DNA from: a virus
Lineage: Duplodnaviria; Heunggongvirae; Uroviricota; Caudoviricetes
IMG/VR virus record: IMGVR_UViG_2651869695_000003
Length of the DNA: 64,000 nucleotides
Direction: 5' to 3' (one strand)
Shown here: positions 567 through 23,456 of the stretch, one piece after another
How the letters are laid out: each line of letters begins with the position of its first letter
How positions within the stretch are numbered: the first letter of the stretch is position 1
Position numbers and translations under genes: made by a program
The notes under the pieces: generated by a model
Databases searched by the model: none
What the model saw: only the letters and a program-made list of their open reading frames with translations
What the model was told of the DNA's origin: nothing

Positions 567-583
567 TTTGGTGGAGAAAGTTG

Positions 584-1446: not shown

Positions 1447-1455
1447 GCTTGGTTA

Positions 1456-2550: not shown

Positions 2551-2693
2551 TGTGGCTGGGGATTCGTTGGTCCTGGCCTATTCCGCAGTTCTCCATCGGT
2601 TCGGCTTCTTTGATGTTTCCGCTTCTGATTTGCGGTACATGATGTTCCCTCAATTTGCACCTGCTGTATCAGCGAGGTGAGAGATAACTACAA

Positions 2694-3020
2694 ATGCCTC
2701 ATAACCCAAATACCTGGCTGGAGTTGGTCCAGAGCTGGTGGCGTGGAGACACACCGCTGGGCGCAGTGATTATGTCGATCGTTATGGCTGGCTTGCGCAT
2801 TGCCTATTTTGGCGGTGGTGGTGGCTGGAAACGAAAAACGCTCGAGATTTTGCTCTGTGGTGCTCTGACGCTGACTTTTGCATCCGCTCTTGAGTATGTC
2901 GGATGGCCTAAATCTCTTTCTGTTGCCATTGGTGGCGGCGTTGGGCTGATCGGGGTCGATGCTATTCGTGGGGCTGCAATGAGAGTAATCGGTAATAAGT
3001 TTGGTGGCTCTAAGGAGTAA
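2694..3020 (+). CDS. Holin
   Basis: 108 aa, hydrophobic segments, first gene of lysis cassette directly before the R-like endolysin. Confidence 0.7.
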   Translation: MPHNPNTWLELVQSWWRGDTPLGAVIMSIVMAGLRIAYFGGGGGWKRKTLEILLCGALTLTFASALEYVGWPKSLSVAIGGGVGLIGVDAIRGAAMRVIGNKFGGSKE

Positions 3021-3023
3021 TTT

Positions 3024-3506
3024 ATGCAGGTACTAAATTCCCAGCGTAAAGCTTTCCTCGATATGGTGGCATGGTCAGAAGGAACGGATAACGGGCGACA
3101 ACCGACACGTAACCACGGTTATGACGTTATTGTCGGAGGTGAACTGTTCACTGATTACTCCGATCACCCTCGCAAACTTGTCACGCTAAACCCGAAACTT
3201 AAATCAACAGCCGCAGGACGTTATCAGCTTCTTTCACGCTGGTGGGATGCTTACCGTAAGCAGCTTGGGCTGAAAGACTTCTCTCCAAAAAGCCAGGATG
3301 CTGTGGCATTGCAGCAGATTAAAGAGCGTGGTGCTTTACCGATGATTGATCGCGGCGATATCCGTCAGGCTATTGATCGTTGCAGCAATATCTGGGCGTC
3401 ATTGCCGGGCGCTGGTTATGGTCAGTTCGAACATAAGGTTGACAGCCTGATTGAAAAATTCAAAGAATCGGGCGGAACGGTCAGAGAAATTCAGCTATAT
3501 GAGTAG
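3024..3506 (+). CDS. R: Endolysin, lambda R-like lytic transglycosylase
   Basis: Near-identical over long stretches to lambda R as recalled ([92 protein letters not shown]). Confidence 0.85.
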
Positions 3507-3963
3507 AGTAACTGCGATTCTGTCCTCTCTGGTTATCTGCACCATCGTCTGCCTATCATGGGCTGTTAATCATTATCGTGATAACGCCATCGCCTACAAA
3601 GAACAGCGCGATAAAGCGAAGGAAAAACTCAGCCAGGCGAACGCCACCATTACTGAGATGCAGCAGCGCCAGCGTGATGTTTCTGCGCTCGATGCGAAAT
3701 ACACCGGAGAACTTGCAAATGCTAAAGCAACTATTGAACAGCTTCAGCGTGATGTTGCTGTTGGCACTAAGCGGCTGTTCCTCGCCGCTAGTTGCCCGAG
3801 AGTGCAATCAACGACCATTACCACCAGCCTGGATGATGCTACCGCCCCCCGACTTACTGACACCGCTCAACGGGATTATTTCACCCTCAGAGAGAGAATT
3901 GAAATCAGTTATAAACAGATAAGAGCATTGCAGGACTATATCTCTAGTCAGTGTGAAAAATAA
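3499..3963 (+). CDS. Rz: Rz i-spanin
   Basis: [31 protein letters not shown] matches lambda Rz N-terminus; start moved to internal Met overlapping R stop. Confidence 0.85.
3719..3922 (+). CDS. Rz1: Rz1 o-spanin lipoprotein, embedded in +1 frame of Rz
   Basis: Signal/lipobox LLLALSGC followed by proline-rich [26 protein letters not shown] as in lambda Rz1. Confidence 0.7.
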
Positions 3964-4044
3964 AATTGCTTTCGATGTATGGATCTGGACATCTTTTTTT
4001 TCTACTATGCTGACTGAGAATTGAAACGTATATGGATATTCTAT

Positions 4045-4803
4045 ATGAAAAGAAAAAAATTAGAAGGTCCCGGGTGTGAATCATATGAAGGGTTAGATGT
4101 TGAATATTATATTGATTCCGAAACGGGGGAATTTAAAGCGGTTTATACATTCAATAATGAAATTGTAGATCGCATAAAATTGAGTGGGCGTATTGCCGAT
4201 AGAGCATCTTCACTGTCCCTAATTCATAGGGACTTAAAAAGTGCTAAAGAGTGGTACCAAATAGCTAATGAACTGGCAGGGAGAAACGAATTAAGGACAG
4301 ATGGCAAGTTATACGGGAATATACTTGATCTAGATTTATCAAGTGAAATTAGAGCGTTATTTGTGGCAAGCCTAACGTTTTATGGTAAAGCTTTCTCTGA
4401 AGCTAAAGGGAGAAAGTTAAAGATGGAGCGTGATTGGCTTGATTCTGAATATTTTGGGTTGCATGACTGTATTATTAACTACAGGCATAATTTTGCAGCA
4501 CATAGCGGCAACCAAGACTATGAGTCAGCAGAAACTTCATTGTTACTAATAAGGAAAAATGGGAAAACATTTTATCAAGCAGTGACAGATAGAAAACAAC
4601 TGAGCATGATTGGTGTCGAGGACGAGCATGTTGATATGATTAATTTATTTGAACATGCGATACAGGTTGTTGAGAAAAAATATAATGAAACATTAGAGAG
4701 AATTAGAACCTATGTCATGCAAAAGAGTTATTCTTTTTGGTGTTTAGCTGCCACAGGGAAAGATCCCGTCAATTTAGATAAGTTAAATAAGAAGAAAAAA
4801 TAA
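4045..4803 (+). CDS. Hypothetical protein, AT-rich moron (candidate abortive-infection or defence gene)
   Basis: Low GC compared with flanking phage genes; followed by a candidate terminator (4840..4869); lies between Rz and HNH/terS; contains YRHNFAAH (R-x5-H). Confidence 0.5.
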   Translation: MKRKKLEGPGCESYEGLDVEYYIDSETGEFKAVYTFNNEIVDRIKLSGRIADRASSLSLIHRDLKSAKEWYQIANELAGRNELRTDGKLYGNILDLDLSSEIRALFVASLTFYGKAFSEAKGRKLKMERDWLDSEYFGLHDCIINYRHNFAAHSGNQDYESAETSLLLIRKNGKTFYQAVTDRKQLSMIGVEDEHVDMINLFEHAIQVVEKKYNETLERIRTYVMQKSYSFWCLAATGKDPVNLDKLNKKKK

Positions 4804-4839
4804 ACCTACTCTTCACATTAGTAACATTAGTAGATGCTA

Positions 4840-4869
4840 AGCCACTAGCAATCGATGGTGGCTTTTTTA
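4840..4869 (+). terminator. Rho-independent terminator after moron gene
   Basis: AGCCAC-loop-GTGGCT followed by TTTTTTATT. Confidence 0.5.
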
Positions 4870-4882
4870 TTGGAGCTTACCA

Positions 4883-5233
4883 ATGCCACCACGAACCCCA
4901 AAAGCCTGCCGTGTTCGCGGCTGCCGCTCTACAACCACAGACCCGTCAGGCTACTGCGAAAGCCACAAAAGCGAAGGCTGGAAGCAATACAAGCCAGGTC
5001 AGTCCCGTCATCAGCGCGGTTATGGTTCGAAGTGGGACGCTATCCGCGCGCGTGTGCTGAAGCGTGACAAAGGTTTATGTCAGTTATGTCTGCGTGCCGG
5101 TGTGGTGCGTGAGGCGAAAACCGTTGACCACATCATCCCTAAAGCGCATGGCGGCACTGATGCCGACTGTAATCTGCAGAGTCTGTGTTGGCCGTGTCAT
5201 AAGGCGAAGACGGCCCGTGAACGGTTAAAGTGA
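4883..5233 (+). CDS. HNH endonuclease (terminase-associated)
   Basis: Cys/His motifs CRVRGC...C and DHIIPKAHGG...CWPCH; directly upstream of cos-like region and terS as in HK97-like phages. Confidence 0.8.
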   Translation: MPPRTPKACRVRGCRSTTTDPSGYCESHKSEGWKQYKPGQSRHQRGYGSKWDAIRARVLKRDKGLCQLCLRAGVVREAKTVDHIIPKAHGGTDADCNLQSLCWPCHKAKTARERLK

Positions 5234-5239
5234 TAATAA

Positions 5240-5340
5240 CTCTCAACTGTCTGAGGGGAGGGGCGGGTCACATCCCTGTGACCTGACGTCTTCCGGACTG
5301 CCCGCCCCATCGTTTTTTTATACCCGCGAAAAATGAAATT
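5240..5340. other. Candidate cos / packaging site region
   Basis: GC-rich dyad GGGGCGGG...CCCGCCCC enclosing palindrome GTCACAtcccTGTGAC between HNH and terS. Confidence 0.3.
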
Positions 5341-5358
5341 TAACCAGGAGTGCCGCAT

Positions 5359-5853
5359 ATGGCTGGAACGACGGGGCGTTCCGGGCGTCGCCCCAAGCCA
5401 ACGGCGCGCAAGGCGCTGGCCGGAAATCCCGGCAAGCGAGCCCTGAACAAAGATGAACCTGTTTTTACGCCCATCAAAGGTGTTGAGCCACCGGAGTGGT
5501 TCGCTGAAGAAGATCTCCCTCTCGCCACGATCATGTGGCAACTGACAACCAAAGAACTCTGCGGTCAGGGCCTGCTGTGCGTGACTGACCTCGCGGTGCT
5601 TGAGCGGTGGTGCGTGGCCTACGAGTTCTGGCGACGTGCCGTGAAAAATATTGCCAGACAGGGCAACACCATCACCGGTGCAATGGGCGGTATGGTCAAA
5701 AATCCGGAGCTGACCGCCAAAAAAGAACAGGAGTCCGAGATGAGCAGTACGGGGGCAATGCTCGGACTCGACCCCAGCAGCCGCCAGCGTCTGATTGGCC
5801 TGGCGGGGAAGAAGAAAGCCACTAACCCGTTTCTGAAAATCATCGAATCATGA
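5359..5853 (+). CDS. Terminase small subunit
   Basis: Basic N-terminus, immediately upstream of and overlapping terL; ATG at 5359 with GGAG upstream. Confidence 0.7.
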
Positions 5854-7583
5854 GCCGGAAATCTTACCCCAACGTAAATGCTGCCAATCAGTATGCCCGG
5901 GATGTCGTGCGCGGAAAGATTGTGGCCTGCCAGTTTGTGATTCAGGCCTGCCAGCGCCATCTTGATGACCTGATGGCGGAAAAAAGTAAGTCGTTTCGTT
6001 ACCGCTTCGACAAGGACCTGGCTGAACGGGCCGCCAAATTTATTCAGCTGTTGCCGCACACCAAGGGTGAGTGGGCATTCAAGAGGATGCCCATCACGCT
6101 GGAGCCGTGGCAGCTCTTTGTGATCTGCTGCGCGTTTGGCTGGGTCAATAAAGGCTCCCGGCTGCGCCGCTTCAGGGAGGTGTATACCGAAATCCCCCGT
6201 AAGAACGGCAAATCGGCAATCTCTGCCGGTGTCGCTCTGTATTGTTTTGCCTGTGATAACGAGTTCGGCGCGGAAGTGTATTCCGGTGCCACGACGGAGA
6301 AACAGGCATGGGAAGTCTTTCGCCCGGCGCGACTGATGTGTAAACGCACACCAATGCTGACGGAAGCGTTCGGGATTGAGGTTAACGCCTCAAACATGAA
6401 CCGTCCGGAGGATGGCGCGCGGTTTGAACCGCTGATCGGTAACCCCGGTGATGGTTCATCACCCCACTGTGCGGTGGTGGATGAATATCACGAGCACGCC
6501 ACCGATGCGCTTTACACCACGATGCTTACCGGGATGGGGGCGCGACGTCAGCCACTGATGTGGGCCATTACTACTGCCGGGTACAACATTGAGGGGCCGT
6601 GCTACGACAAGCGGCGGGAAGTTATCGAGATGCTCAACGGGTCGGTGCCTAACGATGAACTGTTCGGGATCATCTATACCGTTGATGAAGGTGACGACTG
6701 GACCGACCCGCAGGTGCTGGAAAAAGCCAATCCAAATATTGGCGTGTCGGTTTATCGCGAATTTTTGTTAAGTCAGCAACAGCGTGCGAAAAATAACGCC
6801 CGTCTGGCAAACGTCTTTAAAACAAAACACCTCAATATCTGGGTGTCGGCGCGTTCGGCGTATTTCAACCTGGTGAGCTGGCAGAGCTGCGAGGATAAAT
6901 CACTGACCCTTGAGCAGTTCGAGGGGCAGCCGTGCATTCTGGCCTTTGACTTGGCGCGTAAACTGGATATGAACAGCATGGCGCGACTTTATACCCGCGA
7001 GATTGACGGTAAAACGCATTACTACAGTGTGGCCCCGCGTTTCTGGGTACCGTATGACACGGTGTACAGCGTCGAGAAAAATGAAGATCGACGGACAGCC
7101 GAACGCTTTCAGAAATGGGTGGAAATGGGCGTTCTGACCGTTACCGATGGTGCGGAAGTGGATTATCGCTACATCCTCGAGGAGGCCAAAGCGGCGAACA
7201 AAATCAGCCCGGTCAGTGAGTCACCCATCGACCCCTTCGGGGCGACCGGGCTGTCACATGACCTTGCTGATGAAGACCTGAACCCCATCACTATCATTCA
7301 GAACTACACCAACATGTCCGATCCGATGAAAGAGCTGGAAGCGGCAATTGAATCGGGGCGCTTTCATCATGATGGCAATCCCATCATGACCTGGTGTATC
7401 GGCAACGTGGTCGGCAAAACCATTCCGGGTAACGATGATGTGGTGAAGCCCGTCAAAGAGCAGGCGGAAAACAAAATCGATGGTGCAGTTGCGCTGATTA
7501 TGGCGGTTGGCAGAGCCATGCTGTACGAGAAAGAAGACACGCTGTCTGACCACATTGAGTCCTATGGGATCCGCTCGCTTTAA
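5850..7583 (+). CDS. Terminase large subunit
   Basis: 577 aa; ATPase-like motifs (RKNGKS, VVDEYHE) and nuclease domain; canonical position. Confidence 0.9.
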
Positions 7584-7594
7584 CTGAGGTAATT

Positions 7595-7777
7595 ATGATC
7601 ATGCTGATTCTCGCGCCTCTGGTGGGCGTGCTGGGGGCGCTTTTGCTGGCGTATGGTGCCTGGCTGATTTATCCCCCGGCGGGGTTTGTTGTTGCCGGGG
7701 CGTTGTGTCTGTTCTGGTCGTGGCTGGTGGCGCGATATCTCGACCGTACACAGTCGTCTGTCGGCGGAGGTAAATAG
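7595..7777 (+). CDS. Small hydrophobic protein
   Basis: 60 aa, two hydrophobic segments, between terL and portal. Confidence 0.4.
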
Positions 7778-9018
7778 TGTTCTTTTCGGGATTATTTCAA
7801 CGAAAAAGTGACGCACCAGTGACCACGCCAGCAGAGCTGGCGGATGCTATCGGGTTGTCCTACGACACCTATATCGGAAAGCAGATCAGCAGCCAGCGGG
7901 CCATGCGACTGACGGCGGTTTTTTCCTGCGTCAGGGTGCTGGCAGAGTCGGTCGGGATGTTGCCCTGCAATCTGTATCACCTGAACGGCAGCCTGAAAAA
8001 GAGAGCCACCGGCGAGCGTCTGCATAAGCTGATCTCCACGCATCCCAATGGCTATATGACGCCGCAGGAGTTCTGGGAGCTGGTGGTCACCTGTCTGTGC
8101 TTGCGGGGAAACTTTTACGCCTACAAAGTGAAAGGATTTGGCGAAGTGGCTGAACTGCTGCCCGTCGATCCCGGCTGTGTGGTACCGAAGCTTAACAGTA
8201 GCTGGGAGCCGGTCTATCAGGTCACATTCCCGGACGGCTCCACGGATGTACTGAGCCAGGAAGATATCTGGCATGTGCGCACGCTGACGCTGGACGGTCT
8301 GGTGGGACTGAATCCCATCGCCTATGCCCGCGAGGCAATATCGCTGGCAGCTGCGACCGAAGAGCACGGGGCCAGACTGTTCAGCAATGGTGCGGTGACG
8401 TCCGGTGTGTTGCGTACAGAGCAGACGCTGTCGGATCAGGCTTATGAGCGCCTGAAGAAAGATTTTGAGGAGCGTCACACCGGGCTTGGCAATGCTCACC
8501 GCCCGATGATCCTTGAGATGGGGCTGGACTGGAAGTCGATGGCGCTGAACGCCGAGGACAGCCAGTTCCTGGAAACCCGCAAGTTTCAGCTTGAAGAAAT
8601 CTGTCGTCTGTTCCGGGTGCCATTGCACATGGTGCAGAACACCGATCGCGCCACCTTCAACAATATCGAAGAGCTGGGGCTGGGATTTATCAACTATTCA
8701 CTGGTGCCGTATCTGACCCGCATTGAGCAGCGGATCAACACCGGACTGGTACGAAAAAGTAAGCAGGGCGTTTATTACGCCAAATTTAACGCCGGGGCGT
8801 TACTGCGCGGGGATATGAAGTCCCGTTTTGAAGCCTACGCCACCGGTATCAACTGGGGAATTTACTCTCCCAATGACTGCCGCGACCTGGAAGATATGAA
8901 TCCGCGTCCCGGTGGGGATGTCTATCTCACGCCGATGAATATGACCACGAAACCCTCCGATGGCAGTAAAGCCGGTAAGCAGAAGGATAACGCCAATGCA
9001 GACGAAACAACGTCTTGA
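7777..9018 (+). CDS. Portal protein (HK97 family)
   Basis: 413 aa; follows terminase; GTG start overlapping previous stop. Confidence 0.85.
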   Translation: MFFSGLFQRKSDAPVTTPAELADAIGLSYDTYIGKQISSQRAMRLTAVFSCVRVLAESVGMLPCNLYHLNGSLKKRATGERLHKLISTHPNGYMTPQEFWELVVTCLCLRGNFYAYKVKGFGEVAELLPVDPGCVVPKLNSSWEPVYQVTFPDGSTDVLSQEDIWHVRTLTLDGLVGLNPIAYAREAISLAAATEEHGARLFSNGAVTSGVLRTEQTLSDQAYERLKKDFEERHTGLGNAHRPMILEMGLDWKSMALNAEDSQFLETRKFQLEEICRLFRVPLHMVQNTDRATFNNIEELGLGFINYSLVPYLTRIEQRINTGLVRKSKQGVYYAKFNAGALLRGDMKSRFEAYATGINWGIYSPNDCRDLEDMNPRPGGDVYLTPMNMTTKPSDGSKAGKQKDNANADETTS

Positions 9019-9646
9019 TGTACCGCTGAGTCTGAAATCTGTCAGTGACTCCGGTGAGTTTGAAGGGTATGGCTCCGTCTTTGGTGTAAAGGACAGCCAC
9101 GATGATGTGGTGATGTCCGGGGCATTTGCTGCTTCCCTGCGGGCGTGGAGTGACAGAAAAGCGTTACCTGCGCTGCTCTGGCAGCACCGCATGGATGAGC
9201 CCATCGGTGTTTACACCGAAATGAAGGAAGACGATGTCGGGCTTTACGTCAGGGGGCGATTGCTCATTGATGATGATCCCCTGGCAAAACGCGCACATGC
9301 ACACATGAAGGCCGGTTCGTTAACCGGCCTTTCTATTGGGTACGTCCTGAAGGACTGGGAATACGACCGGACGAAAGAAGCCTTTCTGCTGAAAGAAATC
9401 GACCTCTGGGAAGTCAGTCTGGTGACGTTCCCGTCTAACGACGAGGCACGGATCAGCGACGTCAAGAACGCGCTGGCTCGCGGGGAAATCCCCGAACAGA
9501 AAAAAATCGAAAGAGTCCTGCGTGATGTCGGACTCTCCCGTACCCAGGCCAAAGCATTCATGGCCGGGGGCTATAGCGCACTGTCCCTGCGCGACGCTGA
9601 GGATGTGAGCTCTGCACTGAATGCACTGAAAAATCTGAACTTCTAA
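8996..9646 (+). CDS. Prohead (head maturation) protease
   Basis: Between portal and major capsid protein; start set to internal Met with AAGGA upstream. Confidence 0.75.
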   Translation: MQTKQRLDVPLSLKSVSDSGEFEGYGSVFGVKDSHDDVVMSGAFAASLRAWSDRKALPALLWQHRMDEPIGVYTEMKEDDVGLYVRGRLLIDDDPLAKRAHAHMKAGSLTGLSIGYVLKDWEYDRTKEAFLLKEIDLWEVSLVTFPSNDEARISDVKNALARGEIPEQKKIERVLRDVGLSRTQAKAFMAGGYSALSLRDAEDVSSALNALKNLNF

Positions 9647-9660
9647 TCAGGAGAAATACG

Positions 9661-10866
9661 ATGGCGGTAGATATTAAAGATGTCGAACAGGTCGCGCAGG
9701 AGCTGCAGCAGAAGTTTGACGACTTCAAAGCAAAGAACGACAAGCGCGTGGATGCGATTGAGCAGGAAAAAGGCAAGCTTGCCGGACAGGTGGAAACCCT
9801 GAACGGGAAACTCAGCGAGCTGGAAAATCTCAAAAGCGACCTTGAAAAAGAGCTGCTTGAGCTGAAACGTCCGGCAGGTGGATCGCAAAATAAACTGGCC
9901 ACCGAGCATAAAGAGGCGTTTGTGGGCTTCCTGCGTAAAGGCCGTGAAGACGGTCTGCGCGATCTGGAGCGTAAGGCATTGCAGGTGGGCACCGATGAAG
10001 ACGGTGGCTACGCCGTGCCGGAAGAACTGGATCGCAACATTCTTAACCTGCTGAAAGATGAAGTGGTGATGCGTCAGGAAGCCACGGTGATCACCGTTGG
10101 CGGTTCCGACTACAAAAAACTGGTGAATCTGGGCGGTACGGCTTCCGGATGGGTGGGGGAAACGGATACGCGATCCCAGACTGCCACCTCCAGACTGGAG
10201 CTGATTGAACCTCTCATGGGGGAAATCTACGGCAACCCGCAGGCTACCCAGAAAATGCTGGACGATGCCTTCTTCAACGTGGAGGCCTGGATCAACAGCG
10301 AGCTGGCGACCGAATTTGCCGAACAGGAAGAAATTGCCTTTACCACCGGCGATGGTACCAAGAAGCCAAAAGGGTTCCTGGCGTATGAATCTACTGATGA
10401 AACCGATAAGATCCGGGCGTTCGGCAAACTTCAGCATATTGTATCCGGCGAAGCGACCGCGGTGACCGCAGACGCCATTATCAAACTGATTTACACGCTG
10501 CGTAAGGCACACCGCACTGGCGCGAAGTTCATGATGAACAACAACAGCCTGTTTGCCATCCGTCTGCTGAAAGACACCGAGGGTAACTATCTGTGGCGTC
10601 CGGGGCTGGAACTGGGGCAGCCGTCCTCTCTGGCGGGTTACGGTATCGCTGAAAACGAACAGATGCCGGATATCGCCGCTGATGCGAAAGCCATTGCATT
10701 TGGTAACTTCAAACGGGGTTACACCATCGTTGACCGTATCGGCACCCGCATTCTGCGTGACCCGTACACCAATAAACCGTTTGTCGGTTTTTATACCACC
10801 AAGCGCACCGGCGGGATGCTGGTCGATTCGCAGGCCATCAAACTGCTGAAGATTGCAGCGGCGTAA
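9661..10866 (+). CDS. Major capsid protein (HK97 fold) with N-terminal coiled-coil delta domain
   Basis: 401 aa; coiled-coil N-terminus then capsid core; follows protease. Confidence 0.85.
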   Translation: MAVDIKDVEQVAQELQQKFDDFKAKNDKRVDAIEQEKGKLAGQVETLNGKLSELENLKSDLEKELLELKRPAGGSQNKLATEHKEAFVGFLRKGREDGLRDLERKALQVGTDEDGGYAVPEELDRNILNLLKDEVVMRQEATVITVGGSDYKKLVNLGGTASGWVGETDTRSQTATSRLELIEPLMGEIYGNPQATQKMLDDAFFNVEAWINSELATEFAEQEEIAFTTGDGTKKPKGFLAYESTDETDKIRAFGKLQHIVSGEATAVTADAIIKLIYTLRKAHRTGAKFMMNNNSLFAIRLLKDTEGNYLWRPGLELGQPSSLAGYGIAENEQMPDIAADAKAIAFGNFKRGYTIVDRIGTRILRDPYTNKPFVGFYTTKRTGGMLVDSQAIKLLKIAAA

Positions 10867-10873
10867 TCACTCA

Positions 10874-10894
10874 GGGGCGCGGAACCGCGCCCCC
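10874..10894 (+). terminator. GC-rich hairpin after capsid gene
   Basis: GGGGCGCGG-aa-CCGCGCCCC; no strong T-tract, so likely a stabilising or partial terminator. Confidence 0.3.
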
Positions 10895-10915
10895 TGTTCT
10901 GACGGGTGAAGAATC

Positions 10916-11116
10916 ATGATCCTGAAACAAGATCTGAAATGGTCACCGGACGGTATGCGTGTTGAGGTCATTCGGGCCGGTGAGTATGACGACGGGGCGC
11001 TTCCTGCCCGGGTGCAGGAGATTGCACTTCAGGCCGGGTTAGCAGAGCGCGGAATCAGTGCAAAAAGCAGTAAAGCGGCAAAAGAGAAAAAAGCCACGAC
11101 CAGTAAAGAGGGCTGA
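10916..11116 (+). CDS. Hypothetical small protein
   Basis: 66-aa ORF between capsid and head-tail connector genes. Confidence 0.35.
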   Translation: MILKQDLKWSPDGMRVEVIRAGEYDDGALPARVQEIALQAGLAERGISAKSSKAAKEKKATTSKEG

Positions 11117-11118
11117 GT

Positions 11119-11442
11119 ATGCTTCTGACAATGGAAGAGATTAAAGCCCAACTCCGGCTGGATGAGGATTTCGATGCTGATGACCGCCATCTGCAACTGC
11201 TGGCCTGTGCGGCACAAAAGCGGACGGAAACGTATCTGAACCGGAAGCTCTATGCACCGGATGAAACCATTCCGGACAGCGATCCGGACGGGCTGCACCT
11301 GCCGGATGATATTCGTCTGGGGATGCTGATGCTTATCAGCCATTTTTACGAAAACCGCTCGTCGGTTACGGAAGTGGAGAAACTCGACATGCCGCAGAGT
11401 TTTGGCTGGCTTGTCGGCCCGTACAGGTACTTTCCGCAATGA
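11119..11442 (+). CDS. Head-tail connector (gp6-like)
   Basis: 107 aa, position after capsid, overlapping stop-start with next gene. Confidence 0.55.
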   Translation: MLLTMEEIKAQLRLDEDFDADDRHLQLLACAAQKRTETYLNRKLYAPDETIPDSDPDGLHLPDDIRLGMLMLISHFYENRSSVTEVEKLDMPQSFGWLVGPYRYFPQ

Positions 11443-12887: not shown

Positions 12888-13049
12888 GAATCTTCATGTT
12901 TGTGAAACCTGTTAAAGGGCGGTCAGTGCCTGACCCTGCCCGCGGTGACCTTTTGCCCGCCGAAGGGCGAAATGTTGACGAGAACAACTACTGGCTGCGC
13001 CGTGAAGCAGCGGGTGATATCCGGCGCGTGAATAAAAAGGTGAACACCG

Positions 13050-14546: not shown

Positions 14547-14902
14547 TGGCCCGTATCGGGGGAACCTGTTATTTCAAAATTGACGGTCAGCAGCTATCGC
14601 TGACCGGCGGCATTGAGGTGCCCATGAACAGGACGGTCAATGATGACATCATCGGCCTGGACGGTTCAGTGGACCGCAAGGAAACTCACCGTGCGCCTTA
14701 TGTCAAAGGGACCTTCAAGGTGCCGAAGAATTTTCCGGTGAGCAAAATCACCTCGTCTGATGAGATGACCATCACTGCCGAGCTGGCGAACGGTCAGGTC
14801 TATGTATTGTCGTCCGCCTGGCTGCACGGAGAAGCGAACCATAATGCCGAAGAAGGCACGGTTGATCTTGAGTTCCACGGTGAAGAAGGGGATTACCAGT
14901 AA
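14546..14902 (+). CDS. Tail tube protein
   Basis: 118 aa directly after sheath. Confidence 0.65.
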   Translation: MARIGGTCYFKIDGQQLSLTGGIEVPMNRTVNDDIIGLDGSVDRKETHRAPYVKGTFKVPKNFPVSKITSSDEMTITAELANGQVYVLSSAWLHGEANHNAEEGTVDLEFHGEEGDYQ

Positions 14903-15171
14903 TGAAAGAGCTTGAGTTAAAGAAACCGATTATCGCTCATGGTGAGACACTCTCCGTACTGGAGTTTGATGAACCCACCGGGAAGGATGTCCGCGAGCTG
15001 GGGTATCCCTACCAGATGAATCAGGATGAGTCCGTCAGACTTCTGGCGCATGTGGTGTCGAAATACATTGTGCGGCTGGCGAAAGTGCCGCAAAGCTCTG
15101 TCGACCAGATGTCTCCGGCAGACCTGAATGCAGCGGCGTGGCTTGTGGCTGGTTTTTTCCTCCAGGCCTGA
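14902..15171 (+). CDS. Tail assembly chaperone (extended to 15320 by -1 frameshift)
   Basis: 89-aa ORF overlapped by a -1 frame ORF (15138..15320) that runs into the tape measure start. Confidence 0.6.
   Translation: MKELELKKPIIAHGETLSVLEFDEPTGKDVRELGYPYQMNQDESVRLLAHVVSKYIVRLAKVPQSSVDQMSPADLNAAAWLVAGFFLQA
15153..15159 (+). other. Slippery heptamer T_TTT_TTC for -1 programmed frameshift
   Basis: Zero-frame codons GGT TTT TTC near end of chaperone ORF; -1 frame stays open to 15320. Confidence 0.5.
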
Positions 15172-15312
15172 CGGCTGAATACCTCACTGATCGCTTCTTT
15201 GACTGCGCCAGTTACTGGCGCATTAATCCCTTCGAATTGCTGAATATGCCGATCAGTGAAATTCCCTTGCTGGTCAGTCAGGCAAACAGGATAGAGCAGG
15301 AGAAACGCACAC

Positions 15313-17148
15313 ATGGCTGAATTTGAGCTTAAGGCGTTGATCACCGGTGTCGACAGGCTTTCTCCCGCGCTGTCGAAAATGCAAAAGAAAATCCGGGGAT
15401 TTAAACGCCAGGCGGAAGAAGCGTCACAGGGTGGGCTGGCGCTTGGTGGCGGACTGGCAGCGGGTCTGACGCTTTCCCTGAAATCTTATGCCGATCAGGA
15501 AAACGCCGCCACCGGGCTGAAAGTCGCCATGATGGATGCGAACGGCGAGGTTGGAAAGAGCTTTCAGGACATCAATAAACTGGCTATTGGCCTGGGTAAC
15601 CAGCTACCCGGTACAACGGCTGATTTCCAGAACATGATGCAGATGCTGGTGCGTCAGGGGATCCCGGCAGAAAACATTCTTGGTGGTGTGGGTAAAGCGA
15701 CAGCTTATCTTGCGGTACAACTGAAAAAAACACCGGAAGCGGCTGCTGAGTTTGCTGCAAAGATGCAGGATGCTACCGGAACGGCGTCAGAAGACATGAT
15801 GGGGCTGTTCGACACTATCCAGAAGGCGTTTTATCTGGGCGTTGATGATACCAACATGTTGTCCTTCTTCACTAAAACCAGTTCTGTTCTGAAAATGGTG
15901 AATAAGGACGGTCTTCAGGCTGCACAGAGTCTTGCCCCCATCAGTGTCATGATGGATCAGATGGGGATGAACGGGGAGTCGGCAGGTAATGCCCTGCGAA
16001 AAGTTATCCAGTCCGGATTAAGCGTTAAGAAAATCAGGGACGTCAATAAAATCATGGCCCGCCAGAAACTCGGGGTACAGCTCGATTTTACTGATGGCAA
16101 AGGGAGTTTTGGCGGTCTTGATAACATGTTCAGGCAACTGGCAAAGCTGCGAAAACTGACCGACGTTAAGCGAACCGGTGTACTTAAGGCAATATTTGGT
16201 GATGATGCCGAAACCCTTCAGGTGGTCAATGCGCTGATCGATAAAGGAAAGGATGGCTACGATCAGATCCAGCAGAAGATGAATAAACAGGCCAGCCTGA
16301 ATAAACGTGTTCAGGCTCAGCTTGGTACGCTGTCCAACCTGTGGGAGGCAATGACGGGGACCGCAACTAACGGCCTTGCGGCTATTGGCGGCGCATTTTC
16401 TGGTGACGCTAAAAATATCACGCAATGGCTGGGGGAGTTAGGGGAAAAATTCACGAAGTTTGCGGATGAAAATCCCCGGGTTATTCGCGGCGTCGTCGGG
16501 CTTGCTGCCGGTCTTGCGATTCTGAAACTGGGATTGATGGGCGTTGGCGGTGCCATCAGTATTGTCAGCAGGATCATGTCGATGACGCCGATTGGCATGA
16601 TTGCGACGGCGATAGCCCTGGCTGCGGGATTAATTATCACTAACTGGGATGTTGTCGGACCTTATTTTAAGAAACTCTGGGAAACCATTGGTCCTTATTT
16701 TGAGACTGGCTGGGAACTTCTTAAGAAGGTTTTTGCCTGGTCGCCGCTGGGGATGGTGATCAATAACTGGGGACCGGTTGTTAAGTGGTTTCAGGATATG
16801 TGGGACAAGCTGAAGCCAATTATTGAGTGGTTTACCGACAGTTCCGGTGACACGGTCGATGCCATTAACTCTGCGCAGTGGGGCGCGGGTGCTTATGATG
16901 CTTATGGGACGGGAATACCGGCGCGGGGATACACACCTTATCCGGCGGTAGATCCGGCTCAGTCAAACAACGCCTCCGATGCCACAGGCCTGAATCCCTT
17001 CATGATTAACAAAGCTTCTGCGCCAAAAGTTGATGGTGAGATCAAGGTCTCTTTTGTGAATTCGCCTCCGGGTATGCGGGTTATGGAAACGCGATCCAGC
17101 GGTTTTGATGTCAGCCATGATGTTGGCTATACGCGCTTTGGCAGGTAA
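15313..17148 (+). CDS. Tail tape measure protein
   Basis: 611 aa with Gly/Ala-rich and hydrophobic segments. Confidence 0.8.
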   Translation: MAEFELKALITGVDRLSPALSKMQKKIRGFKRQAEEASQGGLALGGGLAAGLTLSLKSYADQENAATGLKVAMMDANGEVGKSFQDINKLAIGLGNQLPGTTADFQNMMQMLVRQGIPAENILGGVGKATAYLAVQLKKTPEAAAEFAAKMQDATGTASEDMMGLFDTIQKAFYLGVDDTNMLSFFTKTSSVLKMVNKDGLQAAQSLAPISVMMDQMGMNGESAGNALRKVIQSGLSVKKIRDVNKIMARQKLGVQLDFTDGKGSFGGLDNMFRQLAKLRKLTDVKRTGVLKAIFGDDAETLQVVNALIDKGKDGYDQIQQKMNKQASLNKRVQAQLGTLSNLWEAMTGTATNGLAAIGGAFSGDAKNITQWLGELGEKFTKFADENPRVIRGVVGLAAGLAILKLGLMGVGGAISIVSRIMSMTPIGMIATAIALAAGLIITNWDVVGPYFKKLWETIGPYFETGWELLKKVFAWSPLGMVINNWGPVVKWFQDMWDKLKPIIEWFTDSSGDTVDAINSAQWGAGAYDAYGTGIPARGYTPYPAVDPAQSNNASDATGLNPFMINKASAPKVDGEIKVSFVNSPPGMRVMETRSSGFDVSHDVGYTRFGR

Positions 17149-17208
17149 TGAAAAATTAATCTGTTAATGAGTCCCACTCCGGTGGGATTTTTTATGTACG
17201 GAGTTTAT

Positions 17209-18537
17209 ATGACGTGGAAAGACAGACTTCAGGACGCGTCATTTCGCGGTGTGCCGTTTAAGGTTGAAGAAGAAAGTGCGGGAACCGGTCGTCGTGTGGA
17301 AACGCACGAATACCCGAACCGCGACAAACCCTATACCGAAGACCTGGGGAAAATCACTTTCCGCCCGTCCATCACGGCTTATGTGGTGGGAGATGACTGC
17401 TTTGACCAGCGCGATCGCCTGATTGACGCGCTGAATAAACCCGGTCCCGGCACGCTTGTCCATCCGACTTACGGTGAGCTGAAAGTCTGTGTTGACGGAG
17501 AGGTTCGGGTCAGCACATCGAAGAGTGAAGGGCGTATTGTCCGCTTTGACCTGAAGTTTGTCGAAGCGGGAGAACTCTCTTACCCCACATCAGGTGCGGC
17601 GACGGCGCAGACGCTGATGTCATCCTGTTCTGCACTGGATGACTGCATCAGTGACAGTTTCAGTAGTTTCAGTATCGATGGCGTGGCAGATTTTGTGCAG
17701 AACGACGTCGTCGGTAATGCCAGCACAATGCTTGGGTATGTTTCTGATGCGATGAAAGTGGTGGATTCTGCCGTATCGGATGCCGCCAGGCTGTTGCAGG
17801 GGGATATCTCGGTACTTCTGCCGCCGCCATCGTCAGGCAAAAATTTCGTTGAGCAGGTGCAGAAAATGTGGCGTACCGGGAAACGCCTTTATGGTAACGC
17901 CAGCGACCTGGTCACCATGATCAAAACGCTTTCCGGTGTCAGCCTCGGCAGCGATCTGCAACCGCGCGGCGTCTGGAAAACGGACAGTAAAACCACCGCC
18001 ACGGCTACGCAGCAGCGTAACGTGGTTGCCAGCACCCTTCGTACGACCGCAATCAGCGAAGCGGCGTATGCCGTCACCCGATTGCCTGCGCCAACAACTT
18101 CCGCGGTGATGCAGAATGCCGCAGTGGGGCAGGCAACAACACCTGCGCAGAGCACTGGCTGGCCTTCCGTCACGCATCCGGCACTGAACAATGCACCGGC
18201 GGTGAAAAACACAGTTGACCTGCCGACGTGGGAAGAACTGACTGACATTCGCGACACACTGAATACGGCAATTGATAAGGAGTTGTCCCGTACAACCAGT
18301 GATGCGCTGTTTCTGGCGCTGCGCCGGGTGAAAGCAGATCTGAATGCGGATATCAACACGCGCCTTGAACAGTCTGCACGGATCATTCAGCGCACGCCGG
18401 ATGAGGTTTTACCCGCGCTGGTGCTGGCGGCGACCTGGTTTGATAACGCGGCGCGTGACGCGGACATTATCCGGCGTAATGCCATTACGCATCCCGGCTT
18501 TGTGCCGGTGATCCCTCTGAAGGTGCCAGTGCAATGA
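17209..18537 (+). CDS. DNA circularisation-like tail protein (Mu N-like)
   Basis: Follows tape measure in Mu-like order; start set to internal Met with GGAG upstream. Confidence 0.55.
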   Translation: MTWKDRLQDASFRGVPFKVEEESAGTGRRVETHEYPNRDKPYTEDLGKITFRPSITAYVVGDDCFDQRDRLIDALNKPGPGTLVHPTYGELKVCVDGEVRVSTSKSEGRIVRFDLKFVEAGELSYPTSGAATAQTLMSSCSALDDCISDSFSSFSIDGVADFVQNDVVGNASTMLGYVSDAMKVVDSAVSDAARLLQGDISVLLPPPSSGKNFVEQVQKMWRTGKRLYGNASDLVTMIKTLSGVSLGSDLQPRGVWKTDSKTTATATQQRNVVASTLRTTAISEAAYAVTRLPAPTTSAVMQNAAVGQATTPAQSTGWPSVTHPALNNAPAVKNTVDLPTWEELTDIRDTLNTAIDKELSRTTSDALFLALRRVKADLNADINTRLEQSARIIQRTPDEVLPALVLAATWFDNAARDADIIRRNAITHPGFVPVIPLKVPVQ

Positions 18538-19613
18538 ACGATAACGTCACGCTACGGGTAAATGGCCGGGAGTGGAATGGCTGGACATCGGTGCGCATCG
18601 GTGCCGGTATTGAACGGCTGGCGCGGGATTTCAGTGTGGAGATCACTCGCCAGTGGCCGGGAGATGAGGGTATCACCACGCTTCAGCCGCGCATTAAAAA
18701 CGGTTCAAAAGTGGAAGTGCTGATTGGTGATGAGCTGGTGATCACCGGCTGGGTGGAGGCGACGCCCGTTCGGTACGATGCCCGTTCGGTCAGCACCGGT
18801 ATTGCCGGACGTAGTCTGACGGCTGACCTGATTGACTGTGCAGCCGAACCGACACAGTTTAACGGACGCTCGCTGGTGCAGATTGCGCAGGCGCTTGCTG
18901 CGCCTTTCGGCATTGAGGTGGTGAACAGCGGTGCGCCGTCGGGTGTTATTCCTGATGTTCAGCCTGATCACGGTGAAACGGTGATTGAGGTAATCAACAA
19001 AATACTCGGTCAGCAGCAGGCGCTGGCTTACGACGACCCGCACGGCAGGCTGGTGATTGGCGGTATTGGCTCAACGCGGGCACATACCGCGCTGGTACTT
19101 GGGGAAAACATCCTTTCCTGTGATACGGAGAAGAGTATCCGGGACCGGTTTTCTGTTTACCAGGTGGCGGGGCAGCGTGCCGGAAACGACGATGATTTCG
19201 GTGAGGCCACCACCACCGCGCTGCGGGCCCGCACAGAGGACGCATTTATTGCCCGTTACCGTCCGATGTATATCAGGCAGACAGGGCAGGCTACGGGGGC
19301 AGGCTGTATTGCGCGTGCTGACTTTGAAGCCCGGCAACGGGCGGCGCGGACGGATGAAACCACCTATGTGGTGCAGGGCTGGCGACAGGGTAACGGTACG
19401 CTGTGGCAACCCAACCAGCGGGTGATTGTCTTTGATCCGGTCTGTGGTTTTGACAATACCGAACTGCTTGTTTCGGAAGTCACGTTTACTCAGGACCAGA
19501 ACGGCACCCTGACGGAAATCCGTGTCGGCCCGCCTGATGCTTATCTGCCTGAACCTGAAGCCCCCGGCGCGCGGAAAAAGAAAAAAGCCAGAGTACAGGA
19601 GGACCCGTTCTGA
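18534..19613 (+). CDS. Baseplate hub protein (Mu P-like)
   Basis: 359 aa, Mu-like synteny. Confidence 0.55.
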   Translation: MNDNVTLRVNGREWNGWTSVRIGAGIERLARDFSVEITRQWPGDEGITTLQPRIKNGSKVEVLIGDELVITGWVEATPVRYDARSVSTGIAGRSLTADLIDCAAEPTQFNGRSLVQIAQALAAPFGIEVVNSGAPSGVIPDVQPDHGETVIEVINKILGQQQALAYDDPHGRLVIGGIGSTRAHTALVLGENILSCDTEKSIRDRFSVYQVAGQRAGNDDDFGEATTTALRARTEDAFIARYRPMYIRQTGQATGAGCIARADFEARQRAARTDETTYVVQGWRQGNGTLWQPNQRVIVFDPVCGFDNTELLVSEVTFTQDQNGTLTEIRVGPPDAYLPEPEAPGARKKKKARVQEDPF

Positions 19614-20161
19614 TGAGGACGATTGAAGCCATGCAGCGACAACTTCTCGGCCTGATTGGGCGGGCAGTGGTGAAAAGCATCAGTGCCGCCACGAAATGTC
19701 AGACCGTGGATGTGTCCCTGATTGCCGGTGAACCCAAAGCCGGGGTTGAACATCTTGAACCCTACGGTTTTACCGCAAGGGCAAACAGCGGTGCGGAAGC
19801 GGTGGTGTTGTTTCCGGATGGCGACCGTTCTCATGCGGTGGTTGTTACGGTGTCGGACCGGCGCTACCGCCTGAAAGGGCTGCAGACGGGTGAGGTGGCT
19901 GTCTATGACGATCAGGGGCAGTCTGTGACGCTGACCCGGGAGGGGATCGTGGTGGACGGTGCAGGTAAAACGATCACGTTTCGCAATGCGCCCAGAGCAC
20001 GTTTTGAAATGGACCTGGAAGTGACCGGACAGGTGAAAGACCTGTGCGACTCCGGCGGCACCACCATGTCAGCGATGCGGCTTGCCTATAACGGCCATTG
20101 TCACAGAGAGAACGGTCAGGGCAGTAACACCGACAAACCGGATAAAGCGATGGAGGCATGA
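19613..20161 (+). CDS. Baseplate spike / assembly protein V-like
   Basis: 182 aa, synteny. Confidence 0.55.
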   Translation: MRTIEAMQRQLLGLIGRAVVKSISAATKCQTVDVSLIAGEPKAGVEHLEPYGFTARANSGAEAVVLFPDGDRSHAVVVTVSDRRYRLKGLQTGEVAVYDDQGQSVTLTREGIVVDGAGKTITFRNAPRARFEMDLEVTGQVKDLCDSGGTTMSAMRLAYNGHCHRENGQGSNTDKPDKAMEA

Positions 20162-20586
20162 TGGAACTGTGGCTGACGGTGAACGGTAAACGCACCTGCG
20201 CCAGCGCACCGCTGGATCCGCTGACCCGCGCCGTGGTGATTTCCCTGTTTACCTGGCGGCGGGCGGAGCCTGATGACAATGCCGACGTCCCGATGGGATG
20301 GTGGGGGGATACCTGGCCTGCGGTACAGAATGACCGTTACGGCTCCCGGCTGTGGCTGCTTCAGCGCGGCAAACTGACCAATCAGCTGGTGCAGACGGTA
20401 AGGGGGTATATCCGCGAATGCCTGCAATGGATGATTGATGACGGTGTGGTGTCCCGTATTGATCTGGATATCCGCCGCACCGGGATTAATGAACTGGGTA
20501 ACAGTATCACTCTCTGGCGTCGTGACGGACCGGTAATGATTTCTTTTGATGATCTGTGGAGTGCGATAACGCATGGCGGACAGTGA
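20158..20586 (+). CDS. Baseplate protein (gpW/gp25-like)
   Basis: 142 aa, synteny. Confidence 0.5.
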   Translation: MMELWLTVNGKRTCASAPLDPLTRAVVISLFTWRRAEPDDNADVPMGWWGDTWPAVQNDRYGSRLWLLQRGKLTNQLVQTVRGYIRECLQWMIDDGVVSRIDLDIRRTGINELGNSITLWRRDGPVMISFDDLWSAITHGGQ

Positions 20587-21631
20587 ATTTCAGCGCCCGA
20601 CGCTGGCAGAAAATATCAGTATGCTCCGTAACGATTTATTCGCCAGGCTGGACGTCAGCGACACGCTCCGGCGCATGGATGAAGACGTGCGGGCAAAGGT
20701 GTATGCGGCGGCGCTGCATACGGTTTACGGTTACATCGATTATCTGGCAATGAACATGCTGCCTGACCTGTGCGATGAGTCCTGGCTGGCGAGACATGCT
20801 GCGATGAAACGGTGTCCGCGCAAGGGGGCCACGTCTGCCAGCGGGTATATGCGCTGGGAAGGTGTCAGCGATGGCCTGAAGGTGACCGCCGGGAGTGTTA
20901 TTCAGCGCGATGATCTGGTTCAGTACACGGCAACTTCTGATGCAACCAGCTCAGGTGGAGTCCTGCGCGTGCCGATCGCCTGCTCAACTGCAGGCGCGGT
21001 CGGTAACGCTGACGACGGTACGGCATTAATCCTGGTCACGCCGGTGAATGGTCTGCCGTCTTCCGGTGTGGCAGATACCCTGACTGGCGGATTCGATACT
21101 GAAGATCTGGAAACGTGGCGCGCCCGCGTCATTGAGCGGTATTACTGGACGCCGCAGGGCGGGGCTGACGGGGACTATGTCGTCTGGGCTAAAGAAGTGC
21201 CCGGCATTACCCGCGCATGGACATACCGTCACTGGATGGGAACGGGGACTGTCGGTGTGATGATTGCCGGCAGTGACCTGATTAATCCCATTCCGGAAGA
21301 ATCAACGGAAACGGCGGCAAGACAACATATCGGGCCACTGGCCCCGGTGGCAGGCTCTGATTTGTATGTGTTCAGGCCGGCGGCGCATACGGTGGATTTT
21401 CATATCCGCGTGACGCCGGACACACCAGAAATACGGGCTGCCATTACCGCGGAGTTGCGTTCGTTCCTGCTGCGTGATGGTTATCCGCAGGGAGAACTGA
21501 AGGTATCGCGTATCAGTGAGGCGATTTCCGGTGCGAACGGGGAATACAGCCATCAATTGCTTGCACCGGCGGACAATATCTCCATTGCAAAAAATGAACT
21601 GGCGGTTCTGGGGACGATTTCATGGACGTGA
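20573..21631 (+). CDS. Baseplate J-like protein
   Basis: 352 aa, synteny before tail fibre genes. Confidence 0.65.
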
Positions 21632-22206
21632 CAAACGATGATTACATCCGTCTGTTGTCGGCACTGCTGCCGCCCGGTCCGGCGTGGTCAGCCAGCGATC
21701 CGGCGATTGCCGGTACGGCACCGTCATTAACCCGTGTTCATCAGCGTGCGGATGCCCTGATGCGGGAGCTGGATCCGCGCACCACCACCGAACTGATAAA
21801 CCGCTGGGAGCGTCTGTGCGGCCTGCCGGATGAATGTATTCCTACAGGGACACAGACCCTTCGCCAGCGCCAGCAACGGCTGGATGCGAAGGTTAACCTG
21901 TCGGGTGGCATCAACGAGGATTTTTATCTTGCACAGCTTGCTGCCCTGGGCAGACCAGATGCTACCATCACGCGATACGACAAAAGCACGTTCACCTGCT
22001 CATCGGCCTGTACTGACGCGGTGAATGCGCCGGAATGGCGGTATTACTGGCAGATCAACATGCCAGCCGCCACCAACACCACCTGGATGACATGTGGCGA
22101 TCCCTGTGATTCCGCACTGCGTATCTGGGGCGACACCGTTGTCGAATGTGTGCTTAACAAACTCTGCCCGTCGCATACCTACGTAATTTTTAAATATCCG
22201 GAGTAA
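21622..22206 (+). CDS. Tail protein (Mu gp48-like)
   Basis: 194 aa immediately upstream of tail fibre. Confidence 0.5.
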
Positions 22207-22209
22207 TCC

Positions 22210-23193
22210 ATGCATCGTATAGACACGAAAACCGCGCAGAAGGATAAGTTCGGCGCGGGTAAGAACGGTTTTACCCGTGGTAACCCCCAGACCGGCACAC
22301 CTGCCACCGATCTTGATGATGACTACTTTGATATGTTGCAGGAAGAACTCTGCAGCGTGGTGGAGGCATCCGGTGCCAGCCTGGAGAAGGGGCGGCATGA
22401 CCAGCTGCTTACCGCGCTTCGTGCGCTGCTGTTAAGCCGCAAGAATCCGTTTAGCGATATCAAATCGGATGGCACGGTGAAAACGGCTCTCGAAAACCTT
22501 GGTTTGGGAGAAGCCAGATTCTCTGGTCGTTTGTTAAACACGAATATTTTTAAAAGCTCTGGAAAATATATCCCAACACTAGGGACAAAAAAGATAAGGG
22601 TCATTGCCTCTGGTGGCGGTGGCGGCGGCGGTGGGGTTCCTGAAACAACAGAAAATCAGCAGGCAACAGCCGGAGCTGGATTGAGCGGTGCATTTATTGA
22701 AGCATTTTTCGAGGTTGATAATGATTTCGAAGTCAACGTTATTATCGGTGCTGCAGGTAAAGGGGGGGGAGCCGGAAGAAATTCAGGTAGTGAAGGTGGC
22801 ACAACTTATTTCGGTTCCCTGATAACTGCACCGGGTGGTACAGGCGGTGGCGCGGGGGGAGCATCTGCAAACACATCATATATTCAGGGTATTTCATGGG
22901 GTGCCAGTCCGACATCGTCCGGTACTGTACTAAGAGCATTTCGCTGTAGTGCAAAAACACCAGGAGCAATGGTTATCTCTGTTAAAGCTGTTGCAGGTGG
23001 TACCGGGGGGGATACACCACTAGGTTCAGGCGGTATAGGTGGTGCAAGTTCTTCATCATTCAGCGGACGTGGTGGTGGTAAAGCTGAGGGCTTTGGTGCT
23101 GGCGGAGGCGGAGCCTGCGCACCTGCCGGAAGTGAGGCTCAATCGGGAGGTGACGGTGCCCCGGGAATAGTTATTGTTGAGGAGTATGCCTGA
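22210..23193 (+). CDS. Tail fibre protein, variant A (shared N-terminal 102 aa + Gly-rich C-terminal domain)
   Basis: N-terminus identical to 23844..24506 through ...LGLGEA, then unique Gly-rich C-terminus. Confidence 0.7.
22487..22512. other. gix/hix-like 26-bp recombination site (left)
   Basis: CTCTCGAAAACC-TT-GGTTTGGGAGAA: imperfect 12-bp dyad half-sites around a 2-bp core; ends 2 bp before the arms diverge. Confidence 0.45.
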
Positions 23194-23456
23194 TGAGTAA
23201 TTTTGCTCTGATTGAACATGGCGTGGTGAAAAATATTATTATCTGGGATGGAGAGGGTGATTTATTCTCTAACTGCGAAATTATAAATATTGATCATATA
23301 GATGCAGGCGTCGGTTGGTTCTATTCTGACGGAGAGTTTATAGCACCACCGGAACCGGAAATGACTGAATATGATGTTGGTAATATCGACGCGGTGATGG
23401 AATCAGATACCAGCACCGCGCCGGACGTCATCTGGCCTGAACTGCCGGAGGCGTAG
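23193..23456 (+). CDS. Tail fibre assembly chaperone A
   Basis: 87-aa acidic ORF directly after fibre A, ending ...WPELPEA. Confidence 0.5.
   Translation: MSNFALIEHGVVKNIIIWDGEGDLFSNCEIINIDHIDAGVGWFYSDGEFIAPPEPEMTEYDVGNIDAVMESDTSTAPDVIWPELPEA

Follow-up and report, generated by a model that had tools for sequence, protein, structure and literature searches.

The window analyzed here is the whole of a 64,000-nt stretch of DNA from a Caudoviricetes virus record (IMG/VR IMGVR_UViG_2651869695_000003), and equals positions 26-64025 of the Escherichia coli draft contig JHST01000046.1 (GCA_001266115.1). Its positions 2694-23456 carry the lysis, packaging, head and tail genes of a tailed phage, a late region that an earlier reading of the sequence, here called the original prediction, took for a mosaic of lambda-like lysis and regulatory genes, an HK97-like head and a Mu-like contractile tail. 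The present analysis concerns the kinship of this late region and the perfect palindrome in which it lies. The genomes of HK97, Mu, lambda, SfV, SfII and vB_EcoM-689R6 (hereafter 689R6) served as references for tblastn, and open reading frames (ORFs) were scanned against Pfam and PHROG. All of the lysis, head and tail genes that had been predicted were found on the plus strand at the positions given for them, with family E-values far beyond chance. The packaging and head genes are these:

4883-5233, plus strand: HNH endonuclease, cos-adjacent and HK97 gp74-like (PF01844, 5e-15)
5299-5308, plus strand: predicted cos cohesive-end sequence TGCCCGCCCC, an exact 10-nt match to the SfI cos gap
5350-5853, plus strand: TerS (PF05119)
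5850-7583, plus strand: TerL (PF03354, PF20441)
7595-7777, plus strand: small membrane protein in the gap between TerL and portal (phrog_502, 2.5e-28), the equivalent of SfII_03
7777-9018, plus strand: portal (PF04860, 3e-108)
8960-9646, plus strand: S78 prohead protease (PF04586, 1e-31)
9661-10866, plus strand: HK97-family major capsid protein (PF05065, 9e-79)

The order HNH, cos, TerS, TerL, portal, S78 protease, capsid, with no separate scaffold gene and just 14 nt between the protease and capsid genes, matches HK97 both in gene order and in Pfam families. Homology to HK97 gp2-gp5 and gp74 was detected at E-values from 2e-7 to 1e-54, the amino acid (aa) identities being 26% for TerL with gp2, 32% for the portal with gp3, 36% for the protease with gp4, 26% for the capsid protein with gp5 and, over 48 residues, 42% for HNH with gp74. 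The HK97-like character predicted for the head module thereby held, although HK97 itself has a lambda-like, non-contractile tail. TerL is far closer to temperate myoviruses, with 100% aa identity to 689R6 and 98% to SfV. The 10-nt sequence TGCCCGCCCC was reported as the cos gap of SfI (PMC3636060). Here it occurs once in each arm of the palindrome, between HNH and terS, and is a predicted cos; the SfV record begins at window position 5292. As a separate observation, two short GenBank records labelled 'Enterococcus phage Efm 3-10' (OR844959.1 and OR844966.1) match the TerL gene (85% DNA identity) and the capsid protein (100% aa identity), and look mislabelled or contaminated.

The head genes lead directly into the connectors, tail and baseplate:

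10916-13066, plus strand: head-tail joining genes (PF05135, PF05521, PF23840, PF10948; phrog_879)
11119-12887, plus strand: connectors and tail terminator, within the joining genes
12896-13066, plus strand: DUF2635 protein, Mu gp38-like
13050-14546, plus strand: tail sheath
14546-14902, plus strand: tail tube (sheath and tube together match PF04984, PF17482, PF17481 and PF10618)
14902-15171, plus strand: tail assembly chaperone, 89-aa short form (PF10109, 2e-15)
15313-17148, plus strand: tape measure protein (PF10145, 1e-26), 99% aa identical to SfV orf14
17167-18537, plus strand: DNA_circ_N protein, Mu gp43 homologue (PF07157)
18534-22206, plus strand: homologues, by Pfam, of Mu gp44 (hub P), gp45, gp46, gp47 (baseplate J) and gp48 (PF21683/PF22255/PF21929, PF06890, PF07409, PF04865, PF10076)

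The joining genes run in the order 66-aa ORF without known function, gp6-like connector, head closure, Neck1/tail completion, tail terminator and DUF2635. From DUF2635 onward the homologues of Mu gp38-gp48 are colinear with those of Mu, and the prediction of a Mu-like tail was well founded at the protein level. The sheath is 36% identical in aa sequence to Mu gpL, and its best solved match is the sheath in PDB 9KHY/9KI1 (4e-80), of which 9KI1 also contains Mu gp44. Identity to Mu is 43% for gp43 (N-terminal domain), 36% for gp44 and 30-40% for gp45-48, and the hub homologue matches the solved structures of Mu gp44 (1WRU, 5e-51) and of a MuSo2 protein (3CDD, ~1e-51). A slippery T_TTT_TTC lies at 15153-15159, 12 nt ahead of the stop codon of the chaperone gene, and the -1 frame, part of which matches phrog_32181, is open to 15320; this suggests a Mu-like chaperone pair made by -1 frameshifting, with a fused form of ~139 aa.

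The likeness to Mu ends with the tail and its invertible fibre segment, which shares with Mu sites of the form AAACC-NN-GGTTT. No similarity to Mu was found at the DNA level, and when the ORFs of 1-24506 were compared with the Mu genome, credible matches were confined to tail genes. Unlike Mu, with which the shared proteins have 30-43% aa identity, this phage has lambdoid replication and integration functions and no transposase, MuB or Mu-type head; the Pfam matches in 46150-52019 are lambdoid rather than Mu-type, and the window also encodes a tyrosine integrase and contains a predicted cos site. By gene content, then, it would not be classed as a Muvirus, i.e., a transposable phage.

Comparison of the whole region by megablast with 50,697 phage records gave near-full-length matches, at 97-98% identity, to 689R6, SfII, SfI, SfIV and SfV. 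Window positions 5234-22514 correspond to SfII 1-17281 as one colinear block (97.9% identity over 17,281 nt), and 4881-22513 match 689R6 at 97.8% over 17,643 nt. Judged by DNA identity, everything from HNH through the constant part of the fibre gene has the same nearest relatives, namely SfII, SfI and 689R6, at 97-98%. A noteworthy mosaic was therefore not borne out: packaging, head, connectors, tail and fibre constant part share their nearest relatives. The original prediction had itself named a common set of nearest relatives across modules as the outcome that would speak against it, and module-wise BLAST largely gave that outcome, the exception being the lysis cassette, whose closest kin are lambdoid siphophages. 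Further afield the head and tail part company. In order of falling identity, the relatives of the capsid protein are SfI (99%), phages of Klebsiella (84%) and of Pseudomonas (63%) and, at ~30%, siphophages of Firmicutes, with further siphophages also among the distant capsid relatives. For the sheath the order is SfII and SfV (99%), phages of Salmonella (85%), of Yersinia (67%) and of Burkholderia (50%) and lastly Mu and D108 (36%), with SuMu-type phages also among the distant sheath relatives. Because these two series differ, head and tail have separate deep ancestries, though their association is an old one.

The exceptional lysis cassette lies upstream of the block, together with cargo genes:

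581-949: Q antiterminator (PF06530), with a mirror copy in the second arm of the palindrome
985-2660, minus strand, mirrored at 44056-45731: three-gene cassette of low guanine-plus-cytosine (GC) content, encoding proteins of 153, 313 and 87 aa (phrog_8552, phrog_7651, phrog_25030)
2694-3020, plus strand: holin S, lambda holin family (PF05106, 6e-25)
3024-3506, plus strand: endolysin R (phrog_90 endolysin, 1.5e-63)
3499-3963, plus strand: i-spanin Rz (PF03245, 2e-40)
~3719-3922, plus strand: o-spanin Rz1, in the +1 frame inside Rz (PF06085, 3e-14), with the lipobox LLLALSGC
4021-4803, plus strand: moron-like ORF of 260 aa (phrog_8440, 2e-117, no known function)

As in lambda, an S-family holin, R, and Rz with embedded Rz1 stand downstream of Q; unlike in lambda, Q and S are set apart by the 1.7-kb cargo cassette on the minus strand. 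R has 92% aa identity to lambda R and 93% to HK97 gp71, Rz has 62% to lambda Rz, and the R-Rz DNA is ~82% identical to both lambda and HK97, so that the lambda-like assignment of R and Rz/Rz1 stood. The holin is 99% identical in aa sequence to that of 689R6 and 95% to SfV S, and gave no tblastn match at E ≤ 0.01 in the lambda genome. S and R are 91-92% identical in DNA to those of the SfV family, in which Rz is different. This SfV-family identity ends at 3499, beyond which Rz/Rz1 are lambda-like, and the switch in similarity points to a recombination joint at the R/Rz boundary (3499/3500).

Such joints are what a recent, previously unseen recombinant of lambda, HK97 and Mu modules, the reading implied by the original prediction, would have in its favor. 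Beside the end of SfV-family identity at 3499, positions 3964-4880 are unmatched in close relatives, and the cassette as a whole is nearest to lambdoid siphophages (mEp460, 86.5%), with nothing above 95% in the phage collection. However, these joints are small and local, HNH through the constant part of the fibre gene is a single colinear block shared with SfII, SfI and 689R6, and 689R6 carries the same S-R genes (91.6%). The same pairing of head and tail also occurs, in diverged form, in Salmonella phages 118970_sal3/As1 (head DNA ~89-94%, sheath 84.7% aa). A recent recombination of the three modules is thus very improbable. The joints in question, at 3499/3500, at ~4881, at 7523-11117 (relative to SfV only) and at the fibre crossover site, are ordinary lambdoid exchanges of the kind already described for the SfV family.

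The hybrid lambda/HK97/Mu layout of the SfV family has been published, and textbook knowledge, since 2002-2003; Allison et al. (in 2002 and 2003) reportedly first described the architecture of SfV as a mosaic of two virion lineages. An HK97-type head with a Mu-like tail is the hallmark of the SfV/SfI/SfII/SfIV/e14 group (PMC3636060, PMC3851460, PMC4542187). The head proteins of SfI, SfII, SfIV and SfV have been assigned to the HK97 family (PMC3851460), and SfI has been called a mosaic phage whose nearest relatives are SfV, e14 and lambda (PMC3636060). The region appears from its sequence to be a further representative of a phage type already on record, from an established lineage, and not a new recombinant.

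Within this group, the region shares with the SfI/SfII/SfIV/689R6/e14 type the HNH-to-fibre block, the cos sequence and a lambdoid early layout. SfV resembles it in TerS, TerL, the connectors and the whole tail (97-99% aa) but not in the portal, protease and capsid, which have 25-28% aa identity to their SfV counterparts versus 97-99% to those of SfI, SfII and SfIV; this difference inside the SfV family has been noted before (PMC3851460, PMC3636060). Integration is at ssrA here versus thrW in SfI/SfII and icd in e14/689R6, and the integrase differs as well. SfI/SfII-type phages have gtr O-antigen genes, whereas no gtr gene was found here, and the junction on the integrase side is an ssrA fragment. 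The window thus lacks the gtrA/gtrB/gtr(type) set beside attP and the integration at thrW that mark the serotype-converting subgroup (SfI, SfII, SfIV, SfV). Rz/Rz1 are SfV-like in the family versus lambda-like here; other differences are in the tips of the fibres and in the cargo (ORFs at 985-2660 and 4021-4803). Both 689R6 and e14 have a DNA invertase adjoining the fibre genes; of the two marks of the e14 subgroup, the window has the inverted 26-bp sites but no adjacent pin/gin/cin invertase.

The fibre end of the region is arranged around these sites:

22210-23193, plus strand: tail fibre S, in the G(+) state, with a variable C terminus (PF21722, Gly_rich_2)
22487-22512, plus strand: 26-bp crossover site CTCTCGAAAACCTTGGTTTGGGAGAA, of Hin/Gin/Cin/Pin type
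23193-23456, plus strand: small ORF U, 87 aa, downstream of Sv, with weak similarity to the Caudo_TAP C terminus (phrog_14370)
23428-23847, minus strand: fibre assembly protein U' (Caudo_TAP, PF02413, 3e-23)
23844-24506, minus strand: alternative fibre S', variable to ~24203 and then running into the mirrored constant part

Fibre S has a constant N terminus (22210 to ~22512) and a glycine-rich variable C terminus beyond it; over the first ~102 aa it has 97% identity to the fibres of SfV and 689R6, beyond which the sequences diverge. S' has 64% aa identity to SfV orf21, and the exact protein is found in two natural prophage contigs, L010 and L011. The site CTCTCGAAAACCTTGGTTTGGGAGAA recurs as an identical inverted copy at 24204-24229, and both copies share the AAACC-NN-GGTTT core with the gix sites of Mu (NC_000929). 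Sv/U and S'v/U' lie between the two sites in opposite orientations (plus and minus, respectively), and both states of the segment occur in relatives: L008 displays the G(+) state, L010 and L011 the G(-) state. These features are those expected of a Pin/Gin-type host-range switch, which the segment is predicted to be. It is nearer to the e14 P segment (StfP, pinE) than to the Mu G segment, and stfP and pinE are the gene names that RefSeq gives in a 98% identical prophage. The original prediction was right to expect a fibre with inversion sites; its end point at 23456 splits the invertible segment (22513-24203) in half.

The segment is also the center of the palindrome. A repeat search and a script both gave window positions 1-22514 and 24202-46715 as reverse complements over 22,514 nt with 100% identity and zero mismatches, the spacer of 1,687 nt (22515-24201) being the invertible segment and the arms ending just inside the crossover sites. 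The original prediction had overlooked this reverse-complement repeat of the whole late region at 24202-46715. The window starts at contig position 26; therefore the left arm stops at the contig end. No invertase was found in the 64-kb window when the enzymes of 689R6 and of Mu (Gin) served as tblastn queries, and we attribute its absence to a mis-join. The same prophage is present in two further assemblies. In one of these (L010), which is 99.99% identical over 12 kb, as in L008 and L011, pin directly follows the same segment. Beyond pin, at the fibre-distal end, L010 and L011 carry genes for GIY-YIG, for a Dcm-like methylase and for an endonuclease of EcoRII type, and then an intact ssrA with smpB. 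For comparison with the window, the relevant stretches are 12075-17140 in L010 and 14284-14838 in L008.

The crossover sites suggest how the two arms may have come to be joined. The natural right-hand site has the outer half TTTTCATAAACG, unlike the two sites of the window, both of which have the fibre-side outer half; thus the two junctions are the Sc-Sv junction of G(+) and the Sc-S'v junction of G(-). Because both are natural and seen in relatives, no novel junction is needed to explain the palindrome. Nor did the arm-segment-arm arrangement occur in any of 5,426 complete E. coli genomes, 2,639 of which have related tails. The palindrome is most likely an assembly mis-join, and at the level of the window it is probably not a real feature.

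Two other origins of the palindrome were weighed. That two independent, related prophages had integrated tail-to-tail would account for the mirroring of GC skew and gene order around ~23358. We rejected this candidate because 22.5 kb contain zero mismatches and because no phage end and no att site separate the arms. Neither an integrase nor host DNA is found between the copies, one invertible segment is common to both, and the boundary of the arms is a crossover site, not a phage end, all of which makes such a pair of prophages hardly conceivable.

The second possibility, that the palindrome is a real 45-kb inverted duplication of the prophage late region, is improbable. Two routes to it are conceivable: Pin-type recombination, in which the right site of one copy reacts with the left site of a second copy on a sister chromosome or replicating phage DNA, and template switching at the inverted sites, as in tandem-inversion-duplication. 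The junctions do fall at functional-looking crossover sites, where a central TT/AA exchange gives precisely the window sequence, and only the palindromic arrangement contains the exact 327-aa and 220-aa fibre proteins both in complete form. However, a culture of mixed segment orientation yields the same sequence without a new junction, the complete identity of the arms and the position of the left arm at the contig end fit a real duplication poorly, as does the count of zero among closed E. coli genomes, and the duplication would delete or displace pin, the restriction-modification genes and the ssrA-proximal attachment site. Hin/Pin-family invertases, moreover, strongly disfavor intermolecular reactions. 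That late regions were genuinely joined head-on through the invertible segment, whether by a Pin-type invertase or by template switching, is accordingly quite improbable. If it were true, the prophage would have two complete late operons, with both fibres expressed at once, and would have lost its own invertase.

The region is very probably the late operon of an E. coli prophage of the SfI/SfII/SfV/e14 type, a temperate myovirus integrated at ssrA, in a contig where mis-joining has most probably produced the palindrome. Several points weigh against this reading or parts of it. Pin-mediated exchange between two copies would produce exactly the same sequence as a mis-join. As regards the parallels with lambda and HK97, the holin N terminus (MPHNPNTW) lacks the Met-Lys-Met of a lambda-style dual start, internal Met residues being present; identity to HK97 itself is modest (26-42% aa); and the nearest solved structure to the capsid protein is the capsid of RcGTA, the Rhodobacter gene transfer agent (6TB9/6TBA, ~2e-75), not HK97 gp5. 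Lastly, the gene functions and the mechanism are taken over by homology from well-studied relatives.

Under the mis-join reading, late gene expression would proceed much as in those relatives. Antitermination by Q would allow late transcription to pass through the lambda-type lysis cassette of holin, R endolysin and Rz/Rz1 spanins, and then into the packaging and head genes, where an HNH nuclease may assist terminase at cos and is followed by the portal, the S78 protease and a capsid protein whose N-terminal part probably acts as scaffold. The Mu-type contractile tail would come last, with its sheath, tube, -1 frameshifted chaperone pair, tape measure and gp43-48 baseplate. Inversion of the 1.7-kb segment between the two 26-bp Pin-type sites would exchange the 3' part of the fibre gene and so provide two receptor-binding tips. 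Were both orientations of the segment present in the sequenced culture, the constant part of the fibre gene would be linked to both ends of the segment, and the assembler could have taken a path from arm through segment into reversed arm, legal but wrong, instead of going onward into pin.

The biological weight of the region is small, the hybrid layout being long known and this copy being 97-98% identical to sequenced phages. Its practical value is as a warning about a draft contig in which the late region is doubled around the fibre segment and the invertase end is missing. Readings of the palindrome as 'two prophages', a 'giant inverted repeat' or a 'prophage without invertase' are likely to rest on an artefact, pending a check of the reads.

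The right part of the window, unique in that it lies outside the repeat, holds the regulatory and integration genes. The predicted lambda-like cI/cro/Q regulation was upheld as to its lambdoid layout and corrected as to its place: cI and cro are at ~51054-52019, outside the region to which the prediction assigned them, and only Q is near it. Pfam places a Peptidase_S24 repressor at 51345-52019, together with a divergent YdaS-type helix-turn-helix protein, a CP76 cII-like protein and RusA. The integrase is located as follows:

56177-57352: tyrosine integrase

On the integrase side, blastn-short found a 35-nt copy of the ssrA 3' end (attR) at 58220-58254. An e14-type integrase and icd are absent from the window by tblastn, and no tRNA genes, tmRNA genes or Rfam families were found in it.

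The cargo genes have few recognizable relatives. The three-gene cassette at 985-2660, which runs antisense in the interval from Q to the holin gene, matched no family in Pfam or PADLOC; SfII carries a different minus-strand pair in its position. The moron-like ORF at 4021-4803, which is followed by a terminator-like hairpin (4839-4864), likewise has no Pfam or PADLOC match and has no counterpart in 689R6, SfII or SfV. PADLOC gave only weak Csx27- and Csn2-like matches among the cargo ORFs, which we did not trust. Around the integrase, 54000-58200 is very low in GC (0.37-0.39). An ORF at 55078-55968 in this stretch has a weak match to a Csx27-like membrane protein (1e-5), and an ORF of 272 aa following the integrase (57392-58210) has no family; both may be prophage cargo or defence genes. 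Past attR lie IS100 istB and istA (58582-60381) and then integrase remnants, a region 99.4% identical to that downstream of ssrA, on the EspC island side, in EPEC (enteropathogenic E. coli) E2348/69.

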